Shown here one piece after another: positions 15,788 through 64,000 of a stretch of DNA of 64,000 nt; within the stretch, counting starts at the first letter, position 1, and each line of letters begins with the position of its first letter. The notes beneath the pieces are model-generated. The model did no database searches. It was not told the DNA's origin and saw nothing but the letters and a program-made list of their open reading frames with translations. The DNA is taken from the NCBI RefSeq assembly GCF_053078305.1, contig NZ_CP166875.1. One strand, written 5' to 3'. Both the position numbers and the translations under genes were made by a program. The stretch comes from a plasmid.

Positions 15788-16471
15788 TTACGCAGCCTCC
15801 GGCATAAACCAGTCATCATTCGCGGCCCCCTGCTGCATGGCCCGTTGTACGGCGGCAAGGCGTTGCTGCCCGGCACGGTGATACTGCTCAAGCAGCTCGA
15901 TACCGATATACCGGCGTCCGGACTGGAAGGCGGCCACGCAGGTTGAGCCGCTGCCTGCAAACGGGTCCAGCACAATTGCGTTCGGGTGTGTGAAGCTCTC
16001 AATCAGCGGTTGCAGGCTGGTAACGGGCTTTTCCGTCGGGTGATGACGATTGCCTGAATATTTCCAGCCCAGCACGTCCGGCAGCGGGTTTTGTGGCAGA
16101 CGTGGACGGCCTTTTGCCAGGATGTAGGCACATTCGTGGCGATAGCCCACATATGCGGCCTTCGATGTGTAGTTTTTGGTGAAGACCAGGTGACCAACAA
16201 CGCTGAATCCCGCATTTTTCCAGGCAGACATAAAACGATCGACGCGATTCCAGCCATAGAAGCTCACCATTAACGCGTCTTTTTTGAGTACGCGGTACAT
16301 CTCATTACAGGCCGGTTGCAGCCATTCATCGGTTTTATCGCCGGCAATGGTACGCCCCTGACGGTCACGAAAACCGACGAGGTACGGCGGGTCGGTGAGG
16401 ATGAAATCAATGGCGTTATCAGGGATACGGGCCATAACATCGATGCAGTTACCGAGGACAAAACGGGACAT
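15788..16471 (-). CDS. Orphan N6-adenine DNA methyltransferase (beta class)
   Basis: DPPY catalytic motif near N-terminus and FxGxG SAM-binding motif (DPFAGSGST) near C-terminus; no adjacent restriction gene. Confidence 0.8.
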   Translation of the reverse strand: MSRFVLGNCIDVMARIPDNAIDFILTDPPYLVGFRDRQGRTIAGDKTDEWLQPACNEMYRVLKKDALMVSFYGWNRVDRFMSAWKNAGFSVVGHLVFTKNYTSKAAYVGYRHECAYILAKGRPRLPQNPLPDVLGWKYSGNRHHPTEKPVTSLQPLIESFTHPNAIVLDPFAGSGSTCVAAFQSGRRYIGIELLEQYHRAGQQRLAAVQRAMQQGAANDDWFMPEAA

Positions 16472-22183: not shown

Positions 22184-22635
22184 TAATACCCCGACAAGAT
22201 TAAATTCTGGTTAACGATATCATTATACAGCGAATAATATAATTATGGTTCACGTATTATTATCCGTGACTCTTTCCTGGTAACTCCCGCATAATAACTT
22301 CACTTTTCCAGTATTCCAGAAGATGATGTTTTTTCCTCGATAATAAAAATGTGCCAATATGGAAATAAGAAATCGGATTTTTTATCAGCATACGCAAATT
22401 TTCAGATAACAATGAATACAGATGTATTTTATATACACAGATAAAACCGCGCAACAGACATAAATATGACAGTAGCATGAAAAAGCAGAGAGAGACAGGG
22501 TGATACAGAAAAGTAACTATTTTTTTAGCTATAGTATTATTGGTTTTACCTATTTTCGTGATTGTGTTTCTGTATATTGGGGGTTCGCGCCCATTTCCTC
22601 TAAAAGTCTCACCTTGCTTAGGTAATTAATTGAAT

Positions 22636-23217
22636 TTATTTATAAAACGTTGCAATTTTAGCATCATTTTTTATTGTTCTTTTTAACCTGAAGTACGTCG
22701 ATCGAGAGATACCTGTTTTTTCTGTCACACTGCCCAGAGATTCTCCCTGTGATATAAGCTCCAACGCTGTAGGCGTTCGTGGATGCTTCTTCCTGCCAAA
22801 TTTTACGCCTGCGGCAAGTGCCGCTATTCTTCCGTCGTTTGTCCGCTCCAGAATACGCTCACGTTCCGCTTCAGCTACAGCAGCAAGGATTTGGATAACC
22901 ATTTTGCCCATTGTCCCTTCTGTACTGAGACCGTTCTCCAGGAACCGGATGGCGATCCCCTTTTTGTAACAGCTATCAACCACACGAATCATGTCAGCAG
23001 TGTTACGCCCCAGTCGGTCCATTTTTGTACAGATGATTACGTCGTCTTTCTCTGCACGGGCCAACAACCGCTGTAGTCCTTCCCGTTCATCAGTTGCGCC
23101 AGTCATCATATCCGTAAAAATACGATCTTCCCGTACCCCGGCATTTTTTAGCTCCGAGATTTGATGTGTTAGCTTCTGATGACTGGTTGATACCCGTGCA
23201 TACCCCAATAACGCCAT
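22636..23217 (-). CDS. tnpR: Serine recombinase / resolvase
   Basis: N-terminal catalytic serine motif (GYARVSTSHQ), C-terminal HTH; divergent from the transposase gene. Confidence 0.85.
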   Translation of the reverse strand: MALLGYARVSTSHQKLTHQISELKNAGVREDRIFTDMMTGATDEREGLQRLLARAEKDDVIICTKMDRLGRNTADMIRVVDSCYKKGIAIRFLENGLSTEGTMGKMVIQILAAVAEAERERILERTNDGRIAALAAGVKFGRKKHPRTPTALELISQGESLGSVTEKTGISRSTYFRLKRTIKNDAKIATFYK

Positions 23218-23373
23218 TTTTAGTCTCACTTATCGTTTTTGACACTGCATGGTATCATAATGTACAAAATACGATTTTTGAAACCTGCTTTTATGCTGTT
23301 TTAGACAGGTATCAGATATCTTAATATTTGATACTAGCCATATTTAACAAATATTTAGCATTTTGGTAAATGT

Positions 23374-26300: not shown

Positions 26301-26412
26301 AGGGAATTATTCTTTTGAAGATCAAGTTGCGATCACAAATTTGGACAGTCTTTTGGAGGGAGTAGACCCACTAAGTGATATCGGAGATATTGAGTCCGAA
26401 TATGACGGTTAA
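23374..26412 (+). CDS. tnpA: Tn3-family DDE transposase
   Basis: 1012 aa, size and organisation typical of Tn3-family TnpA; AT-rich codon usage unlike the backbone. Confidence 0.8.
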   Translation: MQKYKKRISILTKSEINELYQVPSFNPVERDEFFSLDISLKREIDKIINIESRVYLILITGYFRYKPVIPEFTLKDVKRDVKYIIQTYYKNESTNLNLNIPKSTKYRLVKRMLSTLGFEQLTPSIKNELSERLNDVATICMEPKYIFDELLAFLGQRRIALPGYSTVQNLVSDALNFERKRTINILSKRIYPATAQKITSIIHDDGILNSIRGYNYSTRDFSASEIENELRTHNVISSIYYEIKDIINSLGISQGNMEYYATIVKHSTTFRLKRHPKWQGILYLCCYLYFRYREINDKIITAFRYLVKKHKDASVLFAKARATEEIDLINKKLKFASKIFNFFVDSNIEDSIPFGYVREKVFSLISKDDMHLVSEFFDKNKIDVIEYQWQYIDSHHLKIANSIRKLFLAIDIVYDNEKSVIGQQITAAKDDLRGKGKLDAKDLRVIHPSEKNYIVKEGEINTQRFEFHMYSRVSNHLENGVFYAAESEQNKRLEDDLIERSYWHKNKSILIEKTGLERLITPITQTLNELENTFSDKLARITIGINSDANEFVKKQPHSNRLQWSLASKKWKTSIDNPIYNQIKNIGIVDVMKYVNNETNFLSVFNAISSRKNNLEADYNDLLACIFGNGANYGVHRMASASDRSIGILRDVNDKFIRPETTGMANTVISDAIANLSVYKYWTINEDSPFGSVDGQKHTCRINTFKARYSAKYFRKGKGVSAMTLVSNHVPLSTVVISPNEYEGHFAFDLLYNNTSEIQPKSLATDNHGINNVNFAILDIFGYQFSPRYAKFKKIFNELFDVILESDKLIIKLKKQFNFKLIEHEWENIQHIICSLSRKTTIQSTVVKKLSNTKRSNKTLAALREYDRVIKCIYVLDYADNKTLRQFVQQALNRGEAYHQLRRAIASVNGNQFRGGNDYQIDQWNDCARLIANCVIYYNSAILSRLVEKFEKENNKKAIDVLANLSPVAWRHILLGGNYSFEDQVAITNLDSLLEGVDPLSDIGDIESEYDG

Positions 26413-26478
26413 CAACATGATAAATAATGGTTTTTATGCTAAGAGTGAGACTTTTGGAGGAAATGGGCGCAGAACCCC

Positions 26479-42729: not shown

Positions 42730-43068
42730 ATGCGGTTTTTTTTAGGCGGCAGGTGTTACACGGCTGAAAACCTTGAAAAGGATTATCTGGCTGAAGTTGC
42801 TAATTACAGTGACGACCGCTGGGAAGCACCCCAACGCGCCGCACGTCTGGCAGCTGCCGTAAAGCGTTACAAGACATCAGAAATGCTGCGCTTTATTTTT
42901 GCTACCACTGCCTACGATCCCGATCCAGATTTAACCCCGCTGACTGTGAGACGTTTGTGCAAGGCATTGTTCGGCAGAACAGGAAGCCAGTGGCTGGTTG
43001 TTGAAGTTTTTGGGGAGAAGGGGCGTCAGCACCGCAGCGCGGACAGCAATCCGGAGATGGTGGAAAAA
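42730..43068 (+). pseudogene. Hypothetical gene (about 160 aa when rejoined), 5' part, interrupted by Tn3-family copy 2
   Basis: ATG with RBS agggagg; frame continues across the transposon into 46969-47214. Confidence 0.5.
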
Positions 43069-43125
43069 GGGGGTTCGCGCCCATTTCCTCTAAAAGTCTC
43101 ACCTTGCTTAGGTAATTAATTGAAT

Positions 43126-43707
43126 TTATTTATAAAACGTTGCAATTTTAGCATCATTTTTTATTGTTCTTTTTAACCTGAAGTACGTCGATCGAGAGAT
43201 ACCTGTTTTTTCTGTCACACTGCCCAGAGATTCTCCCTGTGATATAAGCTCCAACGCTGTAGGCGTTCGTGGATGCTTCTTCCTGCCAAATTTTACGCCT
43301 GCGGCAAGTGCCGCTATTCTTCCGTCGTTTGTCCGCTCCAGAATACGCTCACGTTCCGCTTCAGCTACAGCAGCAAGGATTTGGATAACCATTTTGCCCA
43401 TTGTCCCTTCTGTACTGAGACCGTTCTCCAGGAACCGGATGGCGATCCCCTTTTTGTAACAGCTATCAACCACACGAATCATGTCAGCAGTGTTACGCCC
43501 CAGTCGGTCCATTTTTGTACAGATGATTACGTCGTCTTTCTCTGCACGGGCCAACAACCGCTGTAGTCCTTCCCGTTCATCAGTTGCGCCAGTCATCATA
43601 TCCGTAAAAATACGATCTTCCCGTACCCCGGCATTTTTTAGCTCCGAGATTTGATGTGTTAGCTTCTGATGACTGGTTGATACCCGTGCATACCCCAATA
43701 ACGCCAT
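43126..43707 (-). CDS. tnpR: Serine recombinase / resolvase (copy 2)
   Basis: Identical to 22636-23217. Confidence 0.85.
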   Translation of the reverse strand: MALLGYARVSTSHQKLTHQISELKNAGVREDRIFTDMMTGATDEREGLQRLLARAEKDDVIICTKMDRLGRNTADMIRVVDSCYKKGIAIRFLENGLSTEGTMGKMVIQILAAVAEAERERILERTNDGRIAALAAGVKFGRKKHPRTPTALELISQGESLGSVTEKTGISRSTYFRLKRTIKNDAKIATFYK

Positions 43708-43863
43708 TTTTAGTCTCACTTATCGTTTTTGACACTGCATGGTATCATAATGTACAAAATACGATTTTTGAAACCTGCTTTTATGCTGTTTTAGACAGGT
43801 ATCAGATATCTTAATATTTGATACTAGCCATATTTAACAAATATTTAGCATTTTGGTAAATGT

Positions 43864-46800
43864 ATGCAGAAGTACAAGAAAAGAATTAGTATATTAACAA
43901 AAAGTGAAATAAATGAATTATATCAAGTCCCCTCTTTTAATCCTGTTGAAAGGGATGAGTTTTTTTCGCTGGATATCAGCCTTAAAAGAGAAATTGATAA
44001 AATAATAAATATAGAAAGCAGGGTGTATCTGATATTAATAACAGGGTATTTCAGATATAAACCTGTGATTCCTGAATTTACATTAAAAGACGTAAAAAGG
44101 GATGTGAAATATATTATCCAGACATATTATAAAAACGAAAGTACTAATCTCAATTTAAACATACCTAAAAGTACAAAGTACCGCCTTGTTAAACGAATGC
44201 TTTCTACTCTAGGATTTGAACAACTCACCCCATCTATAAAAAATGAGTTAAGTGAACGTCTGAATGATGTTGCTACTATATGTATGGAACCAAAATATAT
44301 TTTTGATGAATTACTTGCTTTTTTAGGACAGCGGCGTATAGCTCTTCCTGGATACAGTACTGTCCAGAACCTCGTTTCAGATGCTTTAAACTTTGAAAGG
44401 AAAAGGACAATTAATATTTTGTCAAAGAGAATTTATCCTGCCACTGCACAAAAGATTACATCCATCATCCATGATGATGGAATATTAAATTCCATCAGGG
44501 GATATAATTATAGCACGAGAGACTTCTCAGCATCAGAAATAGAAAATGAATTAAGAACTCACAATGTGATAAGTAGTATTTACTATGAAATAAAAGATAT
44601 AATTAATTCATTAGGTATATCCCAGGGAAACATGGAGTACTATGCAACTATCGTAAAACACAGTACAACATTCAGACTTAAGCGACACCCTAAATGGCAA
44701 GGAATACTTTATTTGTGCTGCTACTTGTACTTCAGATACAGAGAGATAAATGATAAAATAATCACAGCCTTCAGATATTTAGTAAAAAAACATAAAGACG
44801 CTTCAGTTTTGTTTGCAAAAGCTCGGGCAACAGAGGAAATAGATCTAATAAATAAAAAGCTTAAGTTTGCGAGTAAAATATTTAACTTCTTCGTTGATAG
44901 TAACATTGAAGACAGCATCCCTTTTGGATATGTTCGTGAAAAGGTTTTTTCACTTATATCGAAAGATGATATGCATCTTGTGAGTGAATTTTTTGACAAA
45001 AATAAAATCGATGTAATTGAATATCAATGGCAGTATATTGACAGCCATCACCTTAAGATCGCCAATTCAATCCGAAAGCTTTTTCTGGCTATAGATATAG
45101 TATATGACAACGAGAAGTCTGTTATTGGCCAGCAAATTACTGCTGCCAAGGATGATCTCAGAGGAAAAGGAAAGCTGGATGCTAAGGATCTGAGGGTAAT
45201 TCATCCATCCGAGAAAAATTACATTGTAAAAGAAGGAGAAATTAACACTCAACGATTCGAATTTCATATGTACAGCAGGGTATCTAACCATCTGGAAAAC
45301 GGTGTCTTTTATGCTGCGGAGAGTGAACAAAACAAGAGACTGGAAGATGATCTCATAGAACGAAGTTACTGGCATAAGAATAAATCGATTTTGATAGAGA
45401 AAACAGGCCTTGAACGACTTATCACACCAATAACGCAGACTCTTAATGAGCTGGAGAATACCTTTAGCGATAAACTGGCTCGTATAACCATTGGAATAAA
45501 CTCAGATGCTAATGAGTTTGTGAAAAAACAACCACACTCCAACAGATTACAGTGGAGTCTGGCCAGTAAAAAATGGAAGACCAGCATCGATAATCCGATT
45601 TACAATCAGATAAAAAATATCGGAATAGTTGACGTAATGAAGTATGTAAACAATGAGACGAATTTTTTGTCTGTGTTTAATGCCATATCATCCAGGAAAA
45701 ATAATCTTGAAGCTGACTATAATGACCTTCTTGCCTGTATATTTGGTAATGGCGCAAATTATGGTGTTCACAGAATGGCATCTGCATCAGACCGTAGTAT
45801 TGGAATACTACGTGATGTGAATGACAAATTCATTCGTCCAGAAACAACAGGAATGGCCAACACAGTAATATCTGATGCAATTGCAAATCTTTCTGTATAT
45901 AAATACTGGACGATAAATGAAGATTCTCCATTTGGAAGTGTTGATGGGCAGAAGCACACTTGCAGAATAAATACATTTAAAGCCCGTTATTCTGCCAAGT
46001 ATTTCAGAAAGGGGAAAGGGGTTTCTGCGATGACACTGGTATCTAATCATGTGCCATTATCAACTGTGGTAATTTCTCCAAATGAATATGAAGGTCATTT
46101 TGCATTTGACTTGTTATATAACAACACCAGTGAAATACAACCAAAGTCATTAGCGACTGACAATCATGGTATAAACAACGTTAATTTTGCGATTCTTGAC
46201 ATTTTTGGCTATCAGTTTTCACCACGTTATGCAAAATTCAAGAAAATATTTAATGAATTATTTGATGTTATACTGGAGAGTGATAAACTCATTATAAAAC
46301 TTAAAAAACAATTTAACTTTAAGCTCATTGAACATGAATGGGAAAACATCCAACATATTATTTGTTCTTTAAGCAGAAAAACAACCATTCAAAGTACGGT
46401 TGTTAAGAAGTTATCTAATACAAAGCGTAGCAACAAGACATTAGCAGCACTTCGGGAGTATGACCGAGTTATAAAATGCATATATGTCCTGGATTATGCT
46501 GACAATAAAACCTTAAGGCAATTTGTGCAACAAGCACTGAACAGAGGTGAAGCTTATCATCAACTAAGAAGAGCAATAGCATCAGTAAATGGAAATCAAT
46601 TTCGCGGTGGTAATGACTACCAAATAGATCAATGGAACGACTGTGCGAGGTTAATAGCTAATTGTGTAATCTATTATAATTCAGCAATATTATCCAGGCT
46701 GGTCGAGAAATTTGAAAAAGAAAATAATAAAAAAGCGATAGATGTTCTGGCTAACTTATCCCCAGTAGCATGGAGACACATTCTCCTTGGAGGGAATTAT

Positions 46801-46902
46801 TCTTTTGAAGATCAAGTTGCGATCACAAATTTGGACAGTCTTTTGGAGGGAGTAGACCCACTAAGTGATATCGGAGATATTGAGTCCGAATATGACGGTT
46901 AA
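43864..46902 (+). CDS. tnpA: Tn3-family DDE transposase (copy 2)
   Basis: Identical to 23374-26412. Confidence 0.8.
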   Translation: MQKYKKRISILTKSEINELYQVPSFNPVERDEFFSLDISLKREIDKIINIESRVYLILITGYFRYKPVIPEFTLKDVKRDVKYIIQTYYKNESTNLNLNIPKSTKYRLVKRMLSTLGFEQLTPSIKNELSERLNDVATICMEPKYIFDELLAFLGQRRIALPGYSTVQNLVSDALNFERKRTINILSKRIYPATAQKITSIIHDDGILNSIRGYNYSTRDFSASEIENELRTHNVISSIYYEIKDIINSLGISQGNMEYYATIVKHSTTFRLKRHPKWQGILYLCCYLYFRYREINDKIITAFRYLVKKHKDASVLFAKARATEEIDLINKKLKFASKIFNFFVDSNIEDSIPFGYVREKVFSLISKDDMHLVSEFFDKNKIDVIEYQWQYIDSHHLKIANSIRKLFLAIDIVYDNEKSVIGQQITAAKDDLRGKGKLDAKDLRVIHPSEKNYIVKEGEINTQRFEFHMYSRVSNHLENGVFYAAESEQNKRLEDDLIERSYWHKNKSILIEKTGLERLITPITQTLNELENTFSDKLARITIGINSDANEFVKKQPHSNRLQWSLASKKWKTSIDNPIYNQIKNIGIVDVMKYVNNETNFLSVFNAISSRKNNLEADYNDLLACIFGNGANYGVHRMASASDRSIGILRDVNDKFIRPETTGMANTVISDAIANLSVYKYWTINEDSPFGSVDGQKHTCRINTFKARYSAKYFRKGKGVSAMTLVSNHVPLSTVVISPNEYEGHFAFDLLYNNTSEIQPKSLATDNHGINNVNFAILDIFGYQFSPRYAKFKKIFNELFDVILESDKLIIKLKKQFNFKLIEHEWENIQHIICSLSRKTTIQSTVVKKLSNTKRSNKTLAALREYDRVIKCIYVLDYADNKTLRQFVQQALNRGEAYHQLRRAIASVNGNQFRGGNDYQIDQWNDCARLIANCVIYYNSAILSRLVEKFEKENNKKAIDVLANLSPVAWRHILLGGNYSFEDQVAITNLDSLLEGVDPLSDIGDIESEYDG

Positions 46903-46968
46903 CAACATGATAAATAATGGTTTTTATGCTAAGAGTGAGACTTTTGGAGGAAATGGGCGCAGAACCCC

Positions 46969-47214
46969 ACTGTGAGACGTTTGTGCAAGGCATTGTTCGG
47001 CAGAACCGGAAGCCAGTGGCTGGTTGTTGAAGTTTTTGGGGAGAAGGGGCGTCAGCACCGCAGCGCGGACAGCAATCCGGAGATGGTGGAAAAAATGGCT
47101 GCCAGATATCGTCATGCCGCCGAACTACACTGGTCCGCAACGCTGGCAGAAATTGAACGGGTAAAGCGGCTTTATCAGACGAAAATTAAGAAATCCAAAA
47201 AAGAAGTGGGTTGA
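46969..47214 (+). pseudogene. 3' part of the interrupted hypothetical gene
   Basis: Repeats residues LTVRRLCKALF...EMVEK of the 5' part, then continues to a stop. Confidence 0.5.
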
Positions 47215-52960: not shown

Positions 52961-53207
52961 TTTAAAAATTGCCCGCCATTTGCTCCTGATACCGGACATA
53001 TTTTGCATTGGGAGCAAAATGCGTTCAGTGCGATCACGGCACCAGAAACGTCAAACTGGATACACGTAAAAAATGTCGCGATCGCGCAAAATCAAGCCAT
53101 TACTCTCGGGAGTGCTTAAATAATACGCACAATATACAACGCTCTCTTCTCTACAGTCTGTTTCCTGTAATATCCTGCGGTTATTTTGATTTCTCAGAAA
53201 TATTTTC

Positions 53208-53789
53208 CTACCGGGCCTTCATACTCAGCCACCTCTGCTCTTTCGCCGCCAGCCAGCGCCTGGAATTTTGAGCATCACATTCCGATACTTCCCCCTCTGG
53301 TTGACCATCCAGGTTATAACGGGGAGTTCCTGCAACAGAGGTTCTCTGCAGGTAGATCCGGCGACTGGTAATGCAGGATACTGCACAATTCCATTCGTCC
53401 AGGGTCAGCGCTGTTTCCGGATGTGCTGCCAGATATGTAGTAATGTCACGGGTTATGCCTGTTTTCAGAGGCAGAAAACCGCCCCCTTCGGCACGAAGTT
53501 GAGGAAACAGCGCTTTCACCTTCTCCAGACAATCGTGAGTGAACTCACTGGTCCAGTGGGATGGTCTTGGAAAGCGTTGTCTTTTCTTTTTCTTCTTCCT
53601 GGCTGGCGCTTCGGGGATATGAGTTTCGACGGCAGGTGAACTGATTCCGGAGGAGACTGATTCTGTCGCCTGTTCAGTGAGTGCAGGCGCGATAACATCT
53701 TTTTTTTCGGCTAAGGAAGGCGGTGAAAAAGAGCGACGTTTTTTCACCACAATGACGGGATTTTTCTTTTCTTCCAGATCTTTTCCCAT
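53208..53789 (-). CDS. ProQ/FinO-family RNA-binding protein (FopA-like), second paralog
   Basis: Same domain pattern as 21557-22183; AT-rich upstream region. Confidence 0.6.
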   Translation of the reverse strand: MGKDLEEKKNPVIVVKKRRSFSPPSLAEKKDVIAPALTEQATESVSSGISSPAVETHIPEAPARKKKKKRQRFPRPSHWTSEFTHDCLEKVKALFPQLRAEGGGFLPLKTGITRDITTYLAAHPETALTLDEWNCAVSCITSRRIYLQRTSVAGTPRYNLDGQPEGEVSECDAQNSRRWLAAKEQRWLSMKAR

Positions 53790-54025
53790 AAATACCTCTG
53801 CTTCAGAATTTATTTTTTAATAATATCACAAATTATAAATTAATAAAGATTCTCATCTGATAAATTTGTTTAATAATCGGCCTCTAAAAAATATATTGTA
53901 TCCACTTTGTTGTGGTTCTGACAGAAGTAAATTAATTTGAAGTAAATAAAGCAAAATATCAGAAGAATATATCGGGGCGCACAGTCTATCTCTGCCTTTG
54001 TTTCATGGGATGTTCTTTGTATATT

Positions 54026-54062
54026 TTACTTGCTGTTTACTTGCTGTTTACTTGCTGTTTAA
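54026..54062 (+). repeat. 11-bp tandem repeat (gtttacttgct) x 3
   Basis: Directly visible. Confidence 0.8.
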
Positions 54063-54416
54063 GTATGTATATAAGGAGTGCATTCATTATGCCAATGAAG
54101 CTTGTAAAGAAGAATCCCCGGAGCAAAGTGATTCGGGAGCTTAGCTGTGAGCAAGAGATGGCAGTAAAGGCGGTCTGCGGACTGAAAAAACAGCAACTAC
54201 GGCACTACATGCCCTGGCCAATGATCTTCTCCGGGAAATGCGTGAGTATGATGCATGGTTACAGTGTGACTGTATTCCGGGAGATTCGCCGACCATGAAT
54301 TTTGCTGCTCTTAAAAACAACACGGGAACTTTTTATCTGTCCAGTTTGGATATAGATAATTATTGTACTAATAAGGGAAGCCAACACCAGCCGACAGACC
54401 AGACGCCGCTGCTCAT

Positions 54417-54638
54417 TCAGTGAAACGCAGATAAACAGTAAAGCAAATCCAGACTCCAGTACGGAATAATCGTCAGCGGTATTAACGGGATCCGGTGCTC
54501 CCAGTCAAACACCAGGCTGCTGATGTTTTCTCTCCCGGCGGTAAACTGATTCGTCATGCCATAAGTAAGAAAGAAGAATGGGGCCAGCACCATTAGCCAG
54601 CCGATTCCCTGAATAATCACCGCACGCCGCGTTGTCAT
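54417..54638 (-). pseudogene. YnbD-like membrane protein, N-terminal fragment only
   Basis: 73 aa with transmembrane segment, coupled to the upstream gene, then premature stop. Confidence 0.35.
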
Positions 54639-56395
54639 GGTTGACGTCGTACCGCCATAGAGACCGTGAAGATGCCCATTTCATCAATTAGTTGCGTGCA
54701 TTTCTCAAAACCGGCGTCACGGACCAGCGCGTCCATCTCGCCCTGAGTACGTACGCGCATTACCCAGGCTTTGCCATTTTTGTGACTGGTGAGTGACCAG
54801 GCGATGGTTTTTAACTGAGGGTGCCAGGGCTGACAGGTGTAGATCAGAATGCCTCCCGGTTCAATCGCTGCAGCCAGCCCGGCAAGCGAATCTCGTACCG
54901 GCCCGTTTTCCGGGAACAGTTCATACAGACCGGACACGATCCCCAGCGTCGGACGCGGTTCCAGTGCCGCCAGTTCATTACGATTAAAGGCATCCCCCTG
55001 CTCAAATCGCGCACGGCCCACCATACCGCGAGAGGCTATCATCTCCTGACCTTTCGCCACGTTTAATTCGCTGTAATCGCGCAGAAGGATCTCGCTTACC
55101 GCCGTTTCGCCTTGCAGGGCATCAAGCACATAGCGTCCATGCCCGGCGGCAATATCCACGATCCGGACCGAGCTACCCTGCTCTGTTAACCGAGCAACAG
55201 CCTGCTGAATTAACATCTGCAGATGAATTTTACGCTGGCGGATCCCCTTCCAGCCCACGCTATTCAGGTAGTTTTTATCAATGAGGCGCCCCAACGAGGT
55301 GCTGCCCTGAGGCTGGTTGCGATAGATGTAGTCTAGGGTACTGCCGGAATCGAAACCAGTCTCAAATCCCAGACGCACCCCCGTGGACTGCGTGCCCAGC
55401 ACTTTCATCCCGTAGCGCAAACAGCGGTAAGAGATATCGTCCAGCGAATACAGCGCAGGGCCACCGCTCAGTATGCGCCAAGTATCGGCGCTGGGGCTCC
55501 AGCGATCTTCCTGGCTGTAATCAAAACGCTGCACGGGACGGGCATACAAGGTATCAATAAAACTGCGCATCCTGTCAAATGCCAGATGCCGCTCTTTTTC
55601 GCCTAAGGTGTCATGATAAAATCCCGGCAGTACATGCAGTTCTTTCTGCGGATTTCGCAGGTTCTGATAAAAATCAAGCTGCGGCTGGCGGTGCACAACG
55701 TAATCTTCCCCGGAGACCAGCAACTGCACAGGTAGCGTAATGGCGCTGGCATCGCTGACGACTCGCTCAGCCGTTTTGTAGAGATCAAGCAGAATATTCA
55801 CAGCAATTGGTCGGGTAATCAGCGGATCCTTATTGAAGCTTGCCACCCGCTCGGGATCGTGCGTCAGATACTTGCCTTTCACATACGAGTTGACGAAGAA
55901 AAGACCGCGCAGGCGATACATCAATTCCAGCCCCTGGCGAGCAAACGGCACATACAATTTGACCTTAAACGCCGGTGATGCCAACACCAGGCCACGAATG
56001 TCCGGGGCATAATCATGCGCCCAGGTTGCCGCCAGAACCGCCCCGACGCTTTGCGCCACGACGACCACATCCGTCATCCCAGCTTGGCTATCTGCGGCGG
56101 CGAAACGCACAAACTCGTCAACATCCTGCACCGAACGCACGAGCGACGGACTGTAACCACGCAGACCCGGTGAGCGACCATGACCTCGGGCATCCATGGC
56201 ATAAAACGCTGTATCCGGCATCGCCAGCTCATCAACAATGTGTTGCAAACGCCCGGAGTGCTCATGCCCACGATGAAACAGGACCACCACTTTTGGCGTT
56301 GAACTGGCTTCTTGTGCTGGCCAGTGGCGATAAAACAGCTCTGTATTATCACTGGTCAGAAACTGCCGTTCATCGGGTATGCGGGAATTAGTCAT
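54635..56395 (-). CDS. Bifunctional alpha/beta hydrolase + class I SAM-dependent methyltransferase (YnbC-like)
   Basis: 586 aa; N-terminal hydrolase region (HRGHEHSGR..., AQSVGA) and C-terminal MTase region (VDIAAGHGR). Confidence 0.6.
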
Positions 56396-57029
56396 GGGGA
56401 TGATTTCCTTGCGAGGGTTGCAAAAGCGCCGTTAGTCTTTGCTCCAGGTCGTCCATAAACGTTTTCTTCTCCGGATGCGTACTTAGCGCATCGCCAATAT
56501 TTACATCAATAAACAGCGGCAAAGGGATACGATTACCTTTCGCCATCACACGCTCAGTACCGCGCAACCCAACGGGGATAATGGGCACCTCCGGCATGCG
56601 CTGACTCAAATGCCACACTCCGGATTTCAATGGCGCAAGTACGCCTGGCTCACCGCGCGTCCCTTCCGGAAACAGGATCAGTGTTTTACCTTCACGCAGC
56701 GCCTGTTCACATTGCGCCAGCGGATCGGTATAACAGCCCTTTCTTGAAATAGGAATGATGTTAAGGATCTTCAGCGCAAACCAAGCCATGCGTTTATCCC
56801 GCAGAAAATAATCCGCGGCAGCAACCGGATGAACAGAAGCCTGGTAACGCAGCGGAAAAAGCGAAAGCAAGGCGAAAACATCCATATGGCTGTTGTGATT
56901 TGCCACGATTATCGAAGGCCCGTGCTTCGGCAGTCGCTCGCGGTGGCGGACACGCAGACCAAGCCACAGCCAGATGACCGGCCAGACGATACACAGCGTA
57001 AACAGGGTACGGAGTAGTCGTGTCATCAT
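56388..57029 (-). CDS. Lysophospholipid acyltransferase (PlsC-like)
   Basis: HxxxxD motif (ANHNSHMD) and PEGTR motif (FPEGTRG). Confidence 0.7.
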   Translation of the reverse strand: MMTRLLRTLFTLCIVWPVIWLWLGLRVRHRERLPKHGPSIIVANHNSHMDVFALLSLFPLRYQASVHPVAAADYFLRDKRMAWFALKILNIIPISRKGCYTDPLAQCEQALREGKTLILFPEGTRGEPGVLAPLKSGVWHLSQRMPEVPIIPVGLRGTERVMAKGNRIPLPLFIDVNIGDALSTHPEKKTFMDDLEQRLTALLQPSQGNHPHD

Positions 57030-57032
57030 AGG

Positions 57033-57950
57033 TTAGTAGCAGAAATAGCGAACAAAATGGAAGAAGACCGGTGCGGTAAAAATCAGCGAATCCAGCCGAT
57101 CAAGGATGCCTCCATGGCCGGGTAGCAGCGTACCACTGTCTTTGACGCCGATATCACGCTTGATTGCCGACATCACCACGTCGCCGCAAAAGCCAGTAAC
57201 GCCGATAATAACCCCGGCTAACAGTGCCATCGGCCAGCTCAGGGGAGTCAACAGTGGCCCCAGGACTGTTGCCGCCAGCGCCGTCGTTGCCACCCCACCC
57301 AGCAATCCCTCCAGGGTTTTGTTTGGGCTGACCTTCGGTATGACTTTTATACGACCAAGCGACTTGCCCCACAGGTATTGCGCGATGTCGTTAAATTCGG
57401 TCAGGCCGACCAAAAACAGCACCAACAGCGCGCTGGTTTGCATTCCATCCGCCGGTAACACCAGTAAAAACGCGACATGGCTGAAGGCAAATACGGTGGT
57501 CATCAGACTCCAGTGCAACTGGGAAACGGTACGTAAAAAGCCCTGTGTATCCCCAGCAATCACCATTCGCGCCGGTAAAAAAAGGAACACGTAGACCGGG
57601 ATAAACACCACAAACATGCCGTACCAGCCGATACCTATCAGCCAGTAGTTAAGGGGAATTGCAATAAACATCCATAACAGCGGCATGCGGTCGGACTGGC
57701 GGGAAGGCACCAGCGTCAAAAACTCTTTTAGCGCCATAAAGCTGACCAGCGCGAAGAACGTCAGTGCCAGCCAGCTAGGACTTAATAGTGCGAAGGAAAA
57801 CAGGACGATAATCACCCACCAGGTGCGAATACGTAATGTCAGCTCGCGCCAGTCTTTACCTGGACGCAGCCACACCAGCAACCCGTTGATTACGGTGGCA
57901 ATCAACAGCAGGGAAAAAATAACGATCAGTGATTTTTCAAGTAGCGTCAT
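57033..57950 (-). CDS. CDP-diglyceride synthetase-like membrane protein (CdsA/YnbB-like)
   Basis: 305 aa polytopic membrane protein; C-terminal PGHGGILDRLDS signature. Confidence 0.65.
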   Translation of the reverse strand: MTLLEKSLIVIFSLLLIATVINGLLVWLRPGKDWRELTLRIRTWWVIIVLFSFALLSPSWLALTFFALVSFMALKEFLTLVPSRQSDRMPLLWMFIAIPLNYWLIGIGWYGMFVVFIPVYVFLFLPARMVIAGDTQGFLRTVSQLHWSLMTTVFAFSHVAFLLVLPADGMQTSALLVLFLVGLTEFNDIAQYLWGKSLGRIKVIPKVSPNKTLEGLLGGVATTALAATVLGPLLTPLSWPMALLAGVIIGVTGFCGDVVMSAIKRDIGVKDSGTLLPGHGGILDRLDSLIFTAPVFFHFVRYFCY

Positions 57951-58558
57951 TTCACACCCTCTTCACGCAATGCGCTGCGACAGCGATTAAAAATCGTCCA
58001 TAACAACAACAGTGTTGCGACACCCCATATGACATTATTCCAGGCGACAATCTGCGGCCAGATCGACAGTGACAGCCCCCATGCACCAAACACCAGCGCT
58101 CTGTCGCTTTTGCCCAGCGGACCGGCATAGCTGCGCACGCCGTTAATCGTTTGCGCCAGCACGCCGCAAAACTCGGTCATCAGCGCACAAAACACCACGA
58201 TCAGCACCAGCGGTATACTGCTCTGCGGGAGTAGCATAAAGGGCAGATAAAGCGAGATGTCGGAAATTACATCACCCGTCTCATTGAGGATGGCCCCCAG
58301 ACGCGATCTTTGATTACATTCACGCGCCAGCATACCATCGAGCGCATTGAGCGCCATTCGTACAAACAACACCACGGGCAGAAGGACGAATAATCCGGGC
58401 TGAGGATGAATAATGAGCACCACGCCGGTGATAAGGGAAAGCACCATCGCGCACAGTGTAATGTGATTAGCGGTGACGCCGCGCCTGTTCAGCCAGAACA
58501 TCAGCGGTCTTAACAGAGCCTGAAACGAGGGCTTTATCTGGTAAAGGGTCATCATCAC
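57947..58558 (-). CDS. CDP-alcohol phosphatidyltransferase-family membrane protein (YnbA-like)
   Basis: 203 aa; motif DGxxAR...G...D...D pattern (LDGMLARECNQRSRLGAILNETGDVISD). Confidence 0.65.
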   Translation of the reverse strand: MMMTLYQIKPSFQALLRPLMFWLNRRGVTANHITLCAMVLSLITGVVLIIHPQPGLFVLLPVVLFVRMALNALDGMLARECNQRSRLGAILNETGDVISDISLYLPFMLLPQSSIPLVLIVVFCALMTEFCGVLAQTINGVRSYAGPLGKSDRALVFGAWGLSLSIWPQIVAWNNVIWGVATLLLLWTIFNRCRSALREEGVK

Positions 58559-59035
58559 TCCTTAATAAGCATATTTGACGGGGTTGAGTCTGGCCTTTTA
58601 TTGGGGCTGTCACTGGCACACTGAAAGTGAATACAGTTCCGGGCGCGGAAATCCTGCCTGCTGCGCCGGTAAAGGCGACTGACTGGTATTACGGGAGGCC
58701 AGAGAGCCAGTACCTGTGCCGGTAGACTGTGTGGCTGAACCATAAACATAGTGTCCTGGACAACGGTACAGCACTCTGTGCAGCTGTGTCAGCATGCGCT
58801 TTTCTTTAATTATGCCCAGTCATGTGCGGAGGCAAGGATTTCAAAATATCCGTTACATTTGTTGCATGATGCCTTATCGCTGGTCCGGGCTATTGCTTTA
58901 CTTCTTTTAAATCAGCTCTGATGAACATTTTTTACCACTTTATCGCATTAAGGTTATGTCATTCATCGTCTGGCATCACGTTTTTGGTTATGGTGTCAGG
59001 GTGTACCCTACCGCGATAACGCAACCCTAATAAAG

Positions 59036-59902
59036 TCATTCGATGGCATATTTCTTATTGAGAATATATACGCATAAAATAGTTATAAAAACGCCTAGTC
59101 CCTGAATAAATGATATATCTTCCTGCAGGAAGAACCAGGACAACAGCAATGCTACCAGAGGAATAAAATAGAGCATTGCTCCTGCTATGTGAACGGGAAT
59201 CCAGCGTAGGGAATAAAGATAGAAACAAAAAGCCAAAAAATATTGTAAAATTCCTGACAAAAACACAAGAAATACAGATTCTATTGGCAGTTGCAGGGAT
59301 GTGCCAGTTAGAACAATAAAAAAACAAGCAAGAATAAAAGAGAAAGTCAACTGCCCGGTTAACAACGTAACAGGCTCAAAATTCACAATAAGTCGTGATG
59401 AGATAACAACATAAAAGGATGCTGAGAGTACACCTGCAACAATAAGTATATATCCTGTAATATTATCAATGCGGTCATTGATATCAGGTAGGGCAACCAT
59501 TATACTGCCTGCCATTGCTCCAGCAAGCAATAATATAAAGTGTAATGGTGAGTTAATTTTAACGGAAAATAATATAACAGATAGTATAAGAATAAATACT
59601 GACTCAAGTGAAAAAATAACAGCTGTTATACCAGCAGAAATAAATTTTAGGCCATAGAGAGTGAATGTATACGCCAGAAATGGCTCAAAAATTCCTGTTG
59701 AATAGGCAAGGATTGATTTTTTTGTTACCGGGAGTTTTTTTCTGCTAATTGCGAGAACAAACCATGATAACATTGCAGCACTACCAACTTGCCAGAAAAA
59801 CAACTCTCCGGCATCCATGTTTTCGAGACCTTTTTTGCTCATCACTATTGCTGCTCCCCATGAAAAAGCAGCAAGAAATGCAAACATAATTCCCTTAATC
59901 AT
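59036..59902 (-). CDS. DMT-superfamily (EamA-like) transporter
   Basis: 288 aa, about ten hydrophobic segments, very AT-rich. Confidence 0.55.
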   Translation of the reverse strand: MIKGIMFAFLAAFSWGAAIVMSKKGLENMDAGELFFWQVGSAAMLSWFVLAISRKKLPVTKKSILAYSTGIFEPFLAYTFTLYGLKFISAGITAVIFSLESVFILILSVILFSVKINSPLHFILLLAGAMAGSIMVALPDINDRIDNITGYILIVAGVLSASFYVVISSRLIVNFEPVTLLTGQLTFSFILACFFIVLTGTSLQLPIESVFLVFLSGILQYFLAFCFYLYSLRWIPVHIAGAMLYFIPLVALLLSWFFLQEDISFIQGLGVFITILCVYILNKKYAIE

Positions 59903-60604
59903 ATTTAGTTATCTCCTCAGTATAAAGAGGTTTATTTTCAAACGCTCTTGGTGGAAATGGATTAAAAAACTTTGCTTCTTCATCCACAGGAATACCTGGA
60001 ATTTCTCCATAATAAGGATTGCCAACAGGAAACTTTTCCAGTGAGACATAAAACAATACATTCCAGTTAAAAATCATAGGATCATTACTATCAACATCAT
60101 GGATTATGATGGCGTCCTAAGCCAGTTCTCCAGGAATTAATACATCTGTATGATAAAAACCTGAATAGTAATCACTATTAGTAGAATGTATAGGGCAAGC
60201 AAAGCGATTCATTTTAGTATCTGAGTGCCATGTGGTTGATATTTTTTCTGGTGCGGGAATGATGAAATCTGCTATCATAATATTAAGAAAATACTTTACA
60301 GATATATCCAGTTTCATCTGGTTTCTCCTTTATTGTTATCGTGTACCGGTGCATGACAACATAATCACAGCATGATAATAACAATCAATAACAATCAATA
60401 ACAATAAGCTGTGTCACGTTTACATCATGGAACGGAGGTGCTCCTGTGACCTTTGAGCAGAAAAAAGCCCGGCCATGCCCTGATGGACAGCAAAAAGATG
60501 TGGCGGAGCAATTATGCCCCTCCTCTTCTGCGTATTCTCTGGCGGCTGGGTATCCGGCTTCCGCCATTACCCTTTATGCCGTTCTGGCAGGTCACGCTGT
60601 TGAT

Positions 60605-60642
60605 GGGGCTCTGTGGGAATTTCTGCGATAACACCCGCTAAG
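60605..60642 (+). repeat. 38-bp left terminal inverted repeat of a Tn3-family transposon
   Basis: GGGGCTCTGTGGGAATTTCTGCGATAACACCCGCTAAG, matching the GGGG...CGCTAAG pattern of Tn3-family ends. Confidence 0.6.
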
Positions 60643-60779
60643 CGATTTCTCCCTGACGGAAATCACTTGTTTTCCGTCAGGTCCTGCAGTTGAAGAACAT
60701 TGAATCCATAAATCTGCGATTTTTTGCGTGACAAACCCTGTCGGAATGAGAAACTGTACGGAAACTTCAATTTTAAGGT

Positions 60780-61412
60780 TTGTCGCACATGTTGATTGGT
60801 TATATGCGGGTATCAAGCAATGATGAACGTCAGTCAGTTTCTTTGCAGCGTGATGCGTTGATTGCTGCCGGAGTGGATCCCCGGCATTTACATCAGGATC
60901 ATGCTTCAGGTGCTCGTGATAATCGCCCGGGACTTAAGTCCTGTCTCGCTGAACTTCGCGAAGGTGATGTACTGATAGTCTGGAAACTGGATCGACTTGG
61001 TCGTTCACTCTCACATTTGCTCCGAATTATTGAAGACCTGAAAATTCGTGGTATTGCTTTCCGATCATTGACTGAATCTATTGATACAACAACGCCACAC
61101 GGCTCGTTCCTCTTTAACCTTTTTGGCACGCTCGCGGAGTACGAAAGAGCACTTATCACAGAACGCGTTAATGCTGGTCTGGCTGCTGCTCTCCGGCGGG
61201 GGCGAAAAGGCGGAAGGCCACCGGCGATAGATGCTGAAAAGGTTGATCAAATCCTCGCAGCTCTGGAAGGAGGTGCCAGTAAAGCGTCAGTATGTCGCGC
61301 ATTCAGTGTGCCACGCTCAACACTCACCGATACTCTACGACGAATTGGCTGGGCCGGACCTGGGGGCCGTAATCTGACAACGGATCAGAGCAATGTCATT
61401 TCTCGACGCTAA
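60780..61412 (+). CDS. tnpR: Serine recombinase / resolvase
   Basis: Catalytic serine motif (GYMRVSSNDERQ); C-terminal HTH. Confidence 0.85.
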   Translation: MSHMLIGYMRVSSNDERQSVSLQRDALIAAGVDPRHLHQDHASGARDNRPGLKSCLAELREGDVLIVWKLDRLGRSLSHLLRIIEDLKIRGIAFRSLTESIDTTTPHGSFLFNLFGTLAEYERALITERVNAGLAAALRRGRKGGRPPAIDAEKVDQILAALEGGASKASVCRAFSVPRSTLTDTLRRIGWAGPGGRNLTTDQSNVISRR

Positions 61413-64000
61413 ATCGTACGATACGCTTTTTGGATTACCTGAACTTTATGAGGATGCACTTCCCCGGTTTTCGCTCTCCTGCGAGGATATTGCATTCGCC
61501 AGAACTCATCGTCGATCTCATAACCGTCTGGGTTTTGCCATTCAGCTTGCACTTGTCCGTGATCTCGGTCGTACACTGCGTGCAGGAGAGATTCCCCCGG
61601 AGGCTGTTATCACCGTTGTTGCGGAACAACTGGATATTGACCCTGCTGTTTTTACACTTTACGCGCAACGTGAGGAAACCCGTCGGGAACATGCCCGCGA
61701 AATAGTTTCGGCTTTGGCGCTTCGTTCCATCCGGAGTAGCGATTACAGAATGCTCATTATCGCGGCTACACGCGAAGCAGCAACCACCGAAAAAGGACTG
61801 CCGATCACCAGAGCAGTTATCAATAAGCTGAAGGACCAGAAGTTACTTGCTCCTGCTCCGGCGCAACTAATCCGTCTGGCAATGGCGGGCCGGGCGGCTG
61901 CCCGTCGCCTTTCTTATCGGGAACTCATCAGGGATCTGAAACCTTCATCCATTAGCGCTCTCGAGCAGTTGCTTACCGAACGAGTCGGAGAAAAGAGCAT
62001 TTTAGGCTGGATAGCTGAAGCGCCGGAAGGCGTGAAGCTCAAGAATCTTAAGGGGTTAATTGCCAGGCTGGAGGTATTACGAGCAGCGGCAATCTCCGAT
62101 GAGCAACGTAAACGGATTCATGTAAACCGTTACGGTATTATTGCCCGGGATTCTCGCGTTTTACATGCGCGTGAAATACAACGAATGGCATCCGAACGCC
62201 GTCATGCCACGCTGGTAGCCTTTGTTATTGAAAAGCAGGCAACAATTACAGATCTGGCAATTGATATGTTCTGCAAATTGATTGGCAGCACGAGGCGCAG
62301 AGCAGAGATAAGCCAGAAAGAGCGTCGTCTGAAAGCCGCTGAAGTACTTGAAGTCGTAGCTCAGGATCATATTAAGCTGGGACGGGCTCTCCTGGCAGCA
62401 CGTGATGGTAATACTGATATTGAATCTGTAATAACAGCATCACTCGGCTGGGAAGGTTTGATTGCCAGTATGGAGGCTGCAGCTTCGGTGGCATCTTCCC
62501 ATCACTGTTCTGAACTGGATGAACTTATTGGACGACAAAAATCATTACGTAAGCTTGGACGACTCATTTTCAGTGCTTTTTCTTTCAGAGCTTTTCGCCC
62601 GGATGATAGCGTTTTGTTGGCGATTGGGTATTTGCAGGCGTTCTATCATGGCCGAAAATTACCCAAACAAATTCCGCTCGATTTTATGTCCCATAAATGG
62701 CGACGTCGTGTCATCCATGGAGAAAATACCGATCTGCAGGCGTGGGAAGTCGCCGTATTCGTTCATTTGCGAGAACGCCTGAAAACAGGTGACATATGGG
62801 TTGATGGTAGTCGGGCCTGGCGTAGTTTTGAGGACTACCTTCTTCCTCACCATGTTTTCGGGCAGATGCGGGCAGAATCCCGGCTGGGACTTGCCATTCC
62901 GGACAACTTTGCTGAATGGCGGGCTGAGCGAACCACCACACTCAACGCAAAACTGAAAGCGCTGGCAAAAGCTGCTTCGGAGAATGCCATACCCGATGCA
63001 GAACTTTCCAGCAGAGGGTTGTCTGTGTCTCCGATTCGCGAAGAAGAGAACGACAAAATTAAGGCTCTCAGCCGTAAACTATACATGCTGGTACCACGCA
63101 TCAGAATTACCAGTTTGCTGGCAGAAGTTCATAGCTGGACCAGTTTTCTTGATTGTTTCACACATTATCGCACCGGGGAACAGGCGGAAGATGAAGCTGC
63201 ACTTATGGCTGCGATCCTTGCCGATGCGACGAATGCGGGAGCAGAACGGATGGCGCAGAGTTCCCGGGGGGTCACCATTCACCAGATGATGGTAATGATG
63301 GATCGTCATTTACGCACTGAAACCTATGCGTCTGCCACATCAGTTCTGGTCGATGCGCAACAGGAACATCCTTTTGCTGCTATATGGGGTGATGGGCATG
63401 TGTCATCCTCGGACAGGCAGTTTTTTCCTGCGGGTGGACGAGGAGAAGCCAGCCTCGAATATAACGCCAAATACGGCAAACGACCTGGCGCGTCGATTTA
63501 TGGTTTTTTATCGAACCGTTTTGCATCCTTTTTTTCCAGAATGATTCAGGCCTCTGAAAGCGAGGCTCCCTACGTACTTGACGGCTTACTTCATAACGAA
63601 AGTTCTGTGGAGATTCATGAGCATGCCACCGATACAGCCGGTGCGACTGAAACAACATTTTCAATGTTTCACTCTTTTGGTTACAGACTCATACCCCGTA
63701 TTCGCAACCTCGGCAGTCGCAGGTTGTACGTTATTTCACCTTCTGAGGAATATAAACCACTTGATGCCCTGATCGCCGGAAAGGCCAAAATGGAAGTAAT
63801 AGAACAGCACTGGGATGAAGTTTTGCGGCTTAAGGCCTCGATCGGCGCTGGTCTGGTACCACCATCGGTAATACTGAAAAAGCTGGCAGCATCTCCGAGA
63901 CAAAACAGGCTCAATCTGGCCCTGCGTGAAATGGGACGTATTGAACGCTCAATTTTTATCTGTGACTGGTTGCTTGACACTCGGTTACGTCGCAGATCAC
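61393..64000 (+). CDS. tnpA: Tn3-family transposase, 3'-partial (runs off the window)
   Basis: Hand translation from ATG at about 61393 gives an uninterrupted frame to the window end with a TnpA-like N-terminus (NRLGFAIQLALVR); absent from the ORF track because it has no stop. Confidence 0.75.
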   Translation, partial: MSFLDAKSYDTLFGLPELYEDALPRFSLSCEDIAFARTHRRSHNRLGFAIQLALVRDLGRTLRAGEIPPEAVITVVAEQLDIDPAVFTLYAQREETRREHAREIVSALALRSIRSSDYRMLIIAATREAATTEKGLPITRAVINKLKDQKLLAPAPAQLIRLAMAGRAAARRLSYRELIRDLKPSSISALEQLLTERVGEKSILGWIAEAPEGVKLKNLKGLIARLEVLRAAAISDEQRKRIHVNRYGIIARDSRVLHAREIQRMASERRHATLVAFVIEKQATITDLAIDMFCKLIGSTRRRAEISQKERRLKAAEVLEVVAQDHIKLGRALLAARDGNTDIESVITASLGWEGLIASMEAAASVASSHHCSELDELIGRQKSLRKLGRLIFSAFSFRAFRPDDSVLLAIGYLQAFYHGRKLPKQIPLDFMSHKWRRRVIHGENTDLQAWEVAVFVHLRERLKTGDIWVDGSRAWRSFEDYLLPHHVFGQMRAESRLGLAIPDNFAEWRAERTTTLNAKLKALAKAASENAIPDAELSSRGLSVSPIREEENDKIKALSRKLYMLVPRIRITSLLAEVHSWTSFLDCFTHYRTGEQAEDEAALMAAILADATNAGAERMAQSSRGVTIHQMMVMMDRHLRTETYASATSVLVDAQQEHPFAAIWGDGHVSSSDRQFFPAGGRGEASLEYNAKYGKRPGASIYGFLSNRFASFFSRMIQASESEAPYVLDGLLHNESSVEIHEHATDTAGATETTFSMFHSFGYRLIPRIRNLGSRRLYVISPSEEYKPLDALIAGKAKMEVIEQHWDEVLRLKASIGAGLVPPSVILKKLAASPRQNRLNLALREMGRIERSIFICDWLLDTRLRRRS

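Follow-up and report, generated by a model that had tools for sequence, protein, structure and literature searches.

Does a cluster of ynb-like phospholipid genes carried on a plasmid amount to a working membrane-modifying operon? The question is raised by a block of genes in a 64,000-nucleotide stretch of DNA from contig NZ_CP166875.1 (assembly GCF_053078305.1), referred to here as the window. A preliminary description had read this block, from the letters alone, as a horizontally acquired lipid-modification operon similar to E. coli ynbABCD, with an extra acyltransferase and a truncated last gene, that possibly alters the membrane composition of its host. Genes for a TraI/MobA(P) relaxase, TrbC and ParB in the window, together with close DNA matches that are all plasmids, identify the replicon as a plasmid. 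We find that the feature is a real, horizontally acquired, incomplete member of the known but uncharacterised ynb operon family. Our favoured interpretation, held with moderate confidence, is that the block (54373-58915) represents a plasmid-borne, 3′-truncated long-form ynb operon encoding an incomplete pathway that depends on its host, and that its source was a Phytobacter-like enterobacterial chromosome, with later shortening by a rearrangement involving a Tn3-family element.

All five reading frames listed earlier, four tightly coupled genes and a 73-amino-acid fragment, were confirmed on the minus strand of the window. ynbA and ynbB overlap by 4 nt, plsC and ynbC by 8 nt, and ynbC and the ynbD remnant by 4 nt, while ynbB and plsC are separated by a gap of 3 nt. 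BLASTP against E. coli K-12 returned full-length matches to YnbA (71% identity, 4e-101), YnbB (61%, 5e-124) and YnbC (76%, E = 0), encoded in this order on one strand as in an E. coli-type ynb operon, and the 73-residue fragment matched the first 69 residues of YnbD (59%, 1e-18). These similarities lie far beyond chance and bear out the homology to ynbA-D that had been proposed.

Family scans and motifs also agreed with the domain calls made earlier (CDP-alcohol phosphatidyltransferase, CdsA-like, PlsC-type and hydrolase-methyltransferase). The best NCBIfam match of the first protein was archaetidylinositol-phosphate synthase (4.5e-19, well under the curated cut-off) and its best PDB match was the Mycobacterium tuberculosis phosphatidylinositol-phosphate (PIP) synthase PgsA1 (6h53, 4e-08); PF01066 is recorded on YnbA orthologues, and family homology overall is clear. 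The ynbB product matched NCBIfam phosphatidate cytidylyltransferase PRK11624 (2.3e-25; 89.6 bits versus 385 at the CdsA equivalog cut-off), and residues 261-287, SAIKRDIGVKDSGTLLPGHGGILDRLD, fit exactly the C-terminal signature of CdsA (PF01148), S-x-[LIVMF]-K-R-x4-K-D-x-[GSA]-x2-[LIF]-[PG]-x-H-G-G-[LIVMF]-x-D-R-[LIVMFT]-D. The acyltransferase was recognized by PF01553 (9e-23) and by the Thermotoga maritima PlsC structure 5kym (9e-11); it contains the HX4D motif as HNSHMD (residues 45-50) and PEGTR (121-125), and its NCBIfam PlsC score was 19.4 versus an equivalog cut-off of 501. The ynbC product combines Hydrolase_4 (1.2e-68) with Methyltransf_20 (1.1e-143) and carries the motifs AQSVG, GEDYVV, FYHD and DIAAGHG, with a Ser-Asp-His triad on a monoacylglycerol-lipase-like fold in the hydrolase part. 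A fold search for the substrate of the methyltransferase was uninformative, the best methyltransferase-like matches being the uncharacterised Bordetella structure 3ocj and SgvM.

The last gene is truncated, as the preliminary description had noticed, and alignment with the copies on plasmids of Citrobacter sp. TSA-1 (L002) and Enterobacter asburiae (L003) revealed two lesions in ynbD. Relative to both copies, 10 bp (GCGATAAGCC) are missing between 54437 and 54438; the loss puts translation out of frame beyond codon 67 and thereby creates the stop at 54417, such that the 73-residue frame consists of 67 native codons followed by six out-of-frame codons. DNA homologous to ynbD runs beyond this stop codon and ends at 54373. 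Full-length YnbD (~430 aa) comprises a PAP2_3-like membrane domain and a DSP phosphatase domain; the window has lost most of the transferase-like domain, including the PSxH and HHxxD catalytic motifs, together with the whole phosphatase domain. The motifs PSxH, HHxxD and Cx5R are invariant among 53 YnbD orthologues. The N-terminal domain of YnbD resembles AUR1 and SMSr, and a model of the full-length protein resembles a fusion in which a sphingomyelin-synthase/AUR1-like transferase is joined to the lipid phosphatase PTPMT1. A second loss had been missed: the sixth gene (G6), which in complete clusters follows ynbD and encodes a small membrane protein of ~135-136 aa, is absent, and the sequence past the junction is that of a truncated yagA instead. 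G6 proteins are hydrophobic (~135 aa; for example 6604-7014 in L002 and 10020-10430 in L010), have no family in Pfam or NCBIfam, and are missing from E. coli K-12.

To place these losses in context, relatives were collected in a scan at species level that started from a YnbC alignment, and the six proteins were searched by tblastn against the 80 returned loci (the best 80 of 350 confirmed hits, one genome per species). YnbA, YnbB, PlsC, YnbC and YnbD occurred together in 58 of the 80 loci, YnbA, YnbC and YnbD only in 11 (Morganella, Providencia, Pantoea, Erwinia and Xenorhabdus), and the E. coli set of YnbA to YnbD in three. YnbB and PlsC were both present in 60 loci, with their genes adjacent in 55, and every one of these 60 also had YnbD. 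A hidden Markov model of the small sixth protein located G6 directly after ynbD in 72 of the 80 loci. All-against-all clustering of the open reading frames around the 80 loci detected no head-group-supplying enzyme or other conserved partner beyond the six genes. The gene order differs among lineages, being A-B-PlsC-C-D-G6 in Enterobacterales, A-C-D-G6-PlsC-B in Pseudomonas and Betaproteobacteria, and PlsC-B-A-C-D in metagenome-assembled genomes of Acidobacteria; the gene set is retained despite these differences, and plsC remains linked to ynbB in Pseudomonas, Betaproteobacteria and Acidobacteria.

The acyltransferase had been described as an extra gene, and here the comparison led to the opposite view. 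Homologues with 70-85% identity are chromosomal in Citrobacter, Buttiauxella, Hafnia, Chania, Serratia and Pseudocitrobacter, and plsC lies between ynbB and ynbC in the chromosomes of Citrobacter, Hafnia, Chania, Phytobacter, Yersinia and others, which is also its position in the window. The six-gene cluster ynbA-ynbB-plsC-ynbC-ynbD-small gene was found in Citrobacter rodentium, Hafnia paralvei and Chania multitudinisentens, and in C. rodentium its neighbourhood (ydbH ... azoR-hrpA) is that of E. coli ynbABCD. The distribution of plsC and G6 across the survey argues that the ancestral ynb unit comprised six genes and that the chromosomal operon of E. coli has since been reduced, with loss of the acyltransferase. 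The window has the acyltransferase of the long form in its expected place and lacks the G6 gene that would follow ynbD. We also observed that ynbA of C. rodentium (5647-6081) is called at only 144 aa, without a Pfam match and with 50% identity, while the remaining cluster looks intact; this ynbA may be decaying or divergent.

The horizontal acquisition proposed in the preliminary description held up. The nearest chromosomal locus is that of Phytobacter ursingii ATCC 27989T, a complete cluster flanked by azoR and hrpA, with 93% nucleotide identity over 54370-58602 and 92-98% protein identity to the plasmid-type set, whereas gene by gene the E. coli chromosomal ynb genes share only ~61-70% nucleotide identity with the window. 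Megablast among 5,426 complete E. coli genomes yielded no chromosomal match to the block. The copies on the Enterobacter and Citrobacter plasmids are 95% and 91% identical in nucleotide sequence, and the block is carried by different plasmid backbones (IncFIA/FIC, IncK2/Z and I-complex-like). The high identity to P. ursingii, as opposed to E. coli, together with the variety of backbones, supports a horizontal origin.

In finished sequences the block is uncommon: it was found in four of 72,556 plasmids and in two of the 5,426 complete E. coli genomes, on plasmids in both cases, and no plasmid of the collection covers more than 53% of window positions 39001-64000. A larger public collection contained 101 sequence variants in the plasmid-type acyltransferase cluster, one of which alone accounts for 1,329 indexed blocks of public E. 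coli data, never on a contig longer than 200 kb. The places read have the arrangement DMT transporter-ynbA-ynbB-plsC-ynbC followed by a 62-aa ynbD stub abutting the insertion sequence (IS) IS66, with the four genes mostly intact. A block without ynbD is thus the common E. coli form. The DMT/EamA-family transporter gene (59036-59902; GC content 36%) adjoins the block in all of the E. coli plasmid copies that were examined and is not found beside Citrobacter, Enterobacter or chromosomal ynb clusters, which marks it as a travelling neighbour and not as part of the system. The E. asburiae plasmid pN211785FRI (L003) also carries mcr-10.1, a colistin-resistance lipid A phosphoethanolamine transferase gene (14773-16053), ~2.5 kb from ynbA with an IS3-family element between them; this co-location is probably a coincidence of two lipid-related cargos.

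The edges of the block retain traces of Tn3-family elements. On the left, alignment of the window yagA with IncI-gamma/K1 yagA diverges after the sequence ending TGTCCAGTTT, and 25 of the 27 bases at 54342-54368 are those of the terminal inverted repeat of a Tn3-family element that adjoins ynbA in the Citrobacter plasmid (L002 16364-16392). This fragment lacks the outer GGGGT and is the sole such match in the window, and the microhomologies CAGTTT and AAGG occur at both joints of the yagA/repeat/ynbD junction. The junction between the truncated yagA and the truncated ynbD is a scar. On the right, the region upstream of ynbA is common to the Enterobacter and Citrobacter plasmid copies up to ~58915, similarity to the Phytobacter chromosome having stopped at 58602, and 58916-59015 has counterparts between tnpR and tnpA of the L002 Tn3-family element (13234-13333), in the E. 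asburiae plasmid and ahead of a recombinase gene in L001.

An intact Tn3-family transposon with the ynb genes as passengers was considered and rejected, as paired inverted repeats were sought in the window and in the Citrobacter plasmid and only relics were found. In place of two terminal repeats, tnpA and res, the block edges have the 27-bp repeat fragment and a res-like site, with no tnpA, and the Citrobacter plasmid has no second inverted repeat flanking its ynb cluster. No IS ends or long repeats were found at the edges of the ynb block. With relics of Tn3 and no enclosing transposon, a Tn3-family element had a part in shaping the block, which is not demonstrably a transposon passenger.

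The window contains a duplicated Tn3-family element of its own, which was rejected as the origin of the junction repeat because the inverted repeats differ; its terminal repeats start GGGGTTCGCGCCCATTTCCTC. The two copies (22579-26478 and 43069-46968) are 3,900 bp long and 100% identical, and each encodes a 197-aa resolvase and a 1,012-aa transposase. They lie in direct orientation 20.5 kb apart and could drive deletion or duplication of the intervening segment. A 126-bp direct repeat with one mismatch flanks the second copy (42943-43068 and 46969-47094), far above the 5-bp target duplication expected for the Tn3 family. Just upstream of the truncated yagA start, 54025-54061 holds three exact tandem copies of the 11-bp unit TTTACTTGCTG, of which the related plasmid pFHI_NMBU_11_02 has fewer at the same place.

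Codon comparisons of the retained genes gave ratios of non-synonymous to synonymous substitution (dN/dS) of 0.06-0.22 against other plasmid copies, 0.17-0.23 against the closest copy and 0.04-0.13 against chromosomal orthologues. These low values indicate that the genes evolved under constraint, although much of this history predates the truncation, and most of the divergence from the closest copy may do so. The four frames, ~4.1 kb in total, are free of stops and frameshifts in the window; all six genes are intact only in the Citrobacter plasmid. Lesions were present in three of the four complete-plasmid copies, including a ynbA frameshift in pFHI_NMBU_11_02 and, in the Enterobacter plasmid, a ynbD nonsense codon just before the catalytic Cys plus a premature plsC stop. 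The IS66-bounded variants in draft assemblies carry further lesions: ynbB is split in L096 and ynbC has been lost to IS91 in L097. A simple promoter scan upstream of ynbA detected no promoter-like site, and a terminator scan gave only matches inside genes, near the number expected by chance. The promoter presumably lies within 58559-58915; that of E. coli ynbA has been described as requiring activation by BglJ-RcsB (PMC3950696).

Much of this could be accommodated if the block were a silent remnant, hitch-hiking on a mosaic plasmid segment without product or effect. Two near-universal components are gone, lesions are scattered over the plasmid copies, the junctions are recombination scars, and the lack of a promoter-like site, alongside the dependence of the E. 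coli promoter on BglJ-RcsB, would be in keeping with silence. We nevertheless regard this explanation as doubtful, for it has to contend with ~4.1 kb of four open frames without a stop or frameshift, with a block that is widespread in E. coli and whose genes are mostly intact, and with dN/dS values well under 1 even against the closest copy, subject to the caveat that most divergence may be older than the truncation.

According to the favoured interpretation, the PlsC-like acyltransferase and YnbB would form a private supply line that converts lysophosphatidate to phosphatidate and then to CDP-diacylglycerol. YnbA, whose closest relatives are PIP synthases, would transfer the phosphatidyl group from this donor to a phosphorylated alcohol, yielding a phosphatidyl-alcohol-phosphate from which the PTPMT1-like domain of YnbD would strip the terminal phosphate, and the sphingomyelin-synthase/AUR1-like domain of YnbD would hand the head group to another lipid. 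YnbC, with its lipase-like and methyltransferase parts, may remodel an acyl chain or the head group. YnbB of E. coli makes CDP-diacylglycerol in vitro; it sustains the formation of MPIase, a glycolipid of membrane-protein integration, but cannot substitute for CdsA in bulk phospholipid synthesis (PMC6362211, PMC7018664, PMC11413397). With the phosphatase domain and most of the transferase domain of YnbD gone, the plasmid copy would lack the finishing steps and the pathway would be open-ended: alone, the block would make at most CDP-diacylglycerol and a phosphorylated intermediate, and a finished product would need YnbD from the host chromosome. A K-12-type ynbABCD is present at ≥80% coverage in 4,283 of the 5,426 complete E. 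coli genomes, so that host YnbD could in principle complete the pathway.

The YnbA of the window has the motif N71-x2-D74-G-x2-AR-x8-G-x3-N92-x3-D96-x3-D100, which departs from the four-Asp canonical PF01066 motif, D-x2-D-G-x2-A-R-x8-G-x3-D-x3-D, in having Asn at the first and third Asp positions (N71 and N92); D74, G75, A78, R79, G88 and D96 are kept. The Asn/Asn variant occurs in at least 97% of 78 YnbA orthologues and is therefore a family trait, not a defect of the plasmid copy. It suggests an altered metal site or altered chemistry in these proteins.

An Asn/Asn CDP-alcohol transferase, followed by a PTPMT1-like phosphatase and an AUR1/SMSr-like head-group transfer, could belong to a conserved pathway that builds an undescribed lipid in a manner similar to phosphatidylinositol-phosphate synthesis and is encoded by the six ynb genes across Gamma- and Betaproteobacteria and Acidobacteria. 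The D-less E. coli block would in that case be kept to feed or rewire the ynbABCD of the host, either by restoring the acyltransferase that E. coli has lost or by accumulating the phosphorylated intermediate. We consider this extended proposal quite unlikely.

Several considerations weigh against the interpretation of a host-dependent, incomplete pathway. Host YnbD is only 56% identical to the YnbD that was lost, and cross-complementation is not assured. Two of the four canonical Asp residues are replaced by Asn in YnbA, and its chemistry may be different from that of PIP synthases. The biochemical steps after CDP-diacylglycerol are drawn from folds and gene order, and the literature on the ynb operon, YnbC, YnbD and PF12147 contained nothing functional beyond YnbB/MPIase and the BglJ-RcsB control of the ynbA promoter. 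Finally, a D-less block so widely distributed in E. coli could be useful as it stands, and two of the 80 surveyed loci, both chromosomal, have YnbA, YnbB and YnbC only (E. whittamii and Phytobacter massiliensis).

The last two points would also fit the reading of the preliminary description, in which the four genes make up a lipid-modification module that is complete in itself, under selection and able to change the host membrane, the loss of ynbD and G6 having been tolerated or even favoured. Its four frames are intact with their catalytic motifs and show the low dN/dS among plasmid copies reported above; the recurrence of the same D-less arrangement in the 1,329 blocks, all on contigs shorter than 200 kb, and the separate inactivation of ynbD by a nonsense codon in the Enterobacter plasmid, also speak for it. 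YnbD, however, accompanies YnbB and PlsC in all 60 loci that have both, and the lesions in ynbA (pFHI_NMBU_11_02), ynbB (L096), ynbC (L097) and plsC (L003) have more the look of general decay than of a loss aimed at ynbD. Considering, in addition, that the scan found no promoter-like site upstream and that only two complete E. coli genomes possess the block, a self-sufficient module seems unlikely.

We also considered whether the block acts as a supply module only, in which extra YnbB and PlsC, perhaps with YnbA, would raise GlcNAc-PP-DAG (N-acetylglucosaminyl-pyrophosphoryl-diacylglycerol) derived from CDP-diacylglycerol, and hence MPIase and membrane-protein insertion, for instance at low temperature. 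MPIase levels rise when E. coli YnbB is overproduced, and this protein can stand in for CdsA in making MPIase but not bulk phospholipid (PMC6362211, PMC7018664); cold increases the expression of both ynbB and cdsA (PMC11413397), and plasmid YnbB has the full CdsA signature. Set against this, plasmid YnbB, with its putative effect on MPIase, is just 61% identical to the E. coli protein, deletion of ynbB in E. coli gave little phenotype (PMC6362211), and the conservation of YnbA, YnbC, YnbD and G6 as a unit is left unexplained. We judge this explanation very unlikely.

Returning to the favoured interpretation of an incomplete pathway that leans on its host, the suggestion that the block alters membrane composition appears weakened by the missing YnbD and G6, the lesions in three of four complete-plasmid copies and the lack of a promoter-like site in the scan. 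As an incomplete copy, the block should not be taken, from sequence alone, as a working membrane-remodelling operon.

The coordinates of the block and of the features that adjoin it are collected in Table 1. Searches with PADLOC defence models gave zero matches for the four window proteins, full-length YnbD and G6, and a search for RNA families and transfer RNAs within 53000-61500 gave none beyond one sub-threshold chance match.

Table 1. The ynb block and its borders, in window positions.
Feature	Position	Strand	Remarks
ynbA-like CDP-alcohol phosphatidyltransferase	57947-58558	minus	203 aa, intact; 71% identity to K-12 YnbA
ynbB-like CDP-diacylglycerol synthase paralogue	57033-57950	minus	305 aa, intact; 61% identity to K-12 YnbB
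PlsC-type lysophospholipid acyltransferase	56388-57029	minus	213 aa, intact; PF01553
ynbC-like fusion of monoacylglycerol-lipase-like alpha/beta hydrolase and Methyltransf_20 methyltransferase	54635-56395	minus	586 aa, intact
ynbD remnant	54373-54638	minus	open frame 54417-54638, 73 aa
Non-coding stretch 5′ of ynbA	58559-58915	not assigned	from alignments and blastn end points
res-like region with repeated TATCGCAT(T/A)TAGGTTAT units	58916-59015		right edge of the ynb block
Tn3-family terminal inverted repeat fragment, 27 bp	54342-54368	plus	between truncated yagA and truncated ynbD
yagA 5′ part, truncated at the junction	54090-54349	plus	92% identity to yagA of >1,100 plasmids

The comparison defines the full six-gene ynb unit and shows that the version in E. 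coli K-12 is reduced, in a family whose function has otherwise been tied only to YnbB and MPIase. It gives YnbD testable roles, as a lipid phosphatase and a head-group transferase, and flags the unusual active site of YnbA. For finding the lipid product, the complete copies of Citrobacter sp. TSA-1 or Phytobacter would be better starting material than E. coli K-12.

Among known systems, the closest in gene content are the ynb operons themselves. E. coli K-12 ynbABCD (b1408-b1411) has homologous YnbA, YnbB and YnbC with the same order and coupling as the window, but a 15-bp ynbB-ynbC gap without an acyltransferase, no sixth gene and a full-length ynbD, where the window has the acyltransferase and a ynbD stub. 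The long-form chromosomal clusters of Phytobacter ursingii, Citrobacter, Hafnia, Chania, Yersinia and others, annotated with generic product names only, have the same genes in the same order; these clusters are complete, whereas the window copy lies on a plasmid between transposon relics and is without most of ynbD and all of G6. The housekeeping enzymes PlsC and CdsA share catalytic families and motifs with the window proteins, which score far under the respective equivalog cut-offs.

Beyond the ynb family, the proposed logic would be similar to that of Bacteroides thetaiotaomicron BT_1522-BT_1526, which encode a PIP synthase, a PIP phosphatase and an AUR1-like transferase (PMC9246714), and to the mycobacterial route through PgsA1 (PMC9246714), the best solved relative of YnbA. 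In contrast with the Bacteroides inositol-lipid cluster, ynb has no linked inositol-phosphate synthase or head-group supplier, and its phosphatase is of the PTPMT1/DSP type and not PgpA-like. Compared with mitochondrial PTPMT1, a phosphatidylglycerophosphate phosphatase, the phosphatase of YnbD is fused to a membrane transferase-like domain. YnbA also differs in having Asn at the first and third Asp positions. The likeness of ynb to these pathways is one of possible mechanism rather than of membership.

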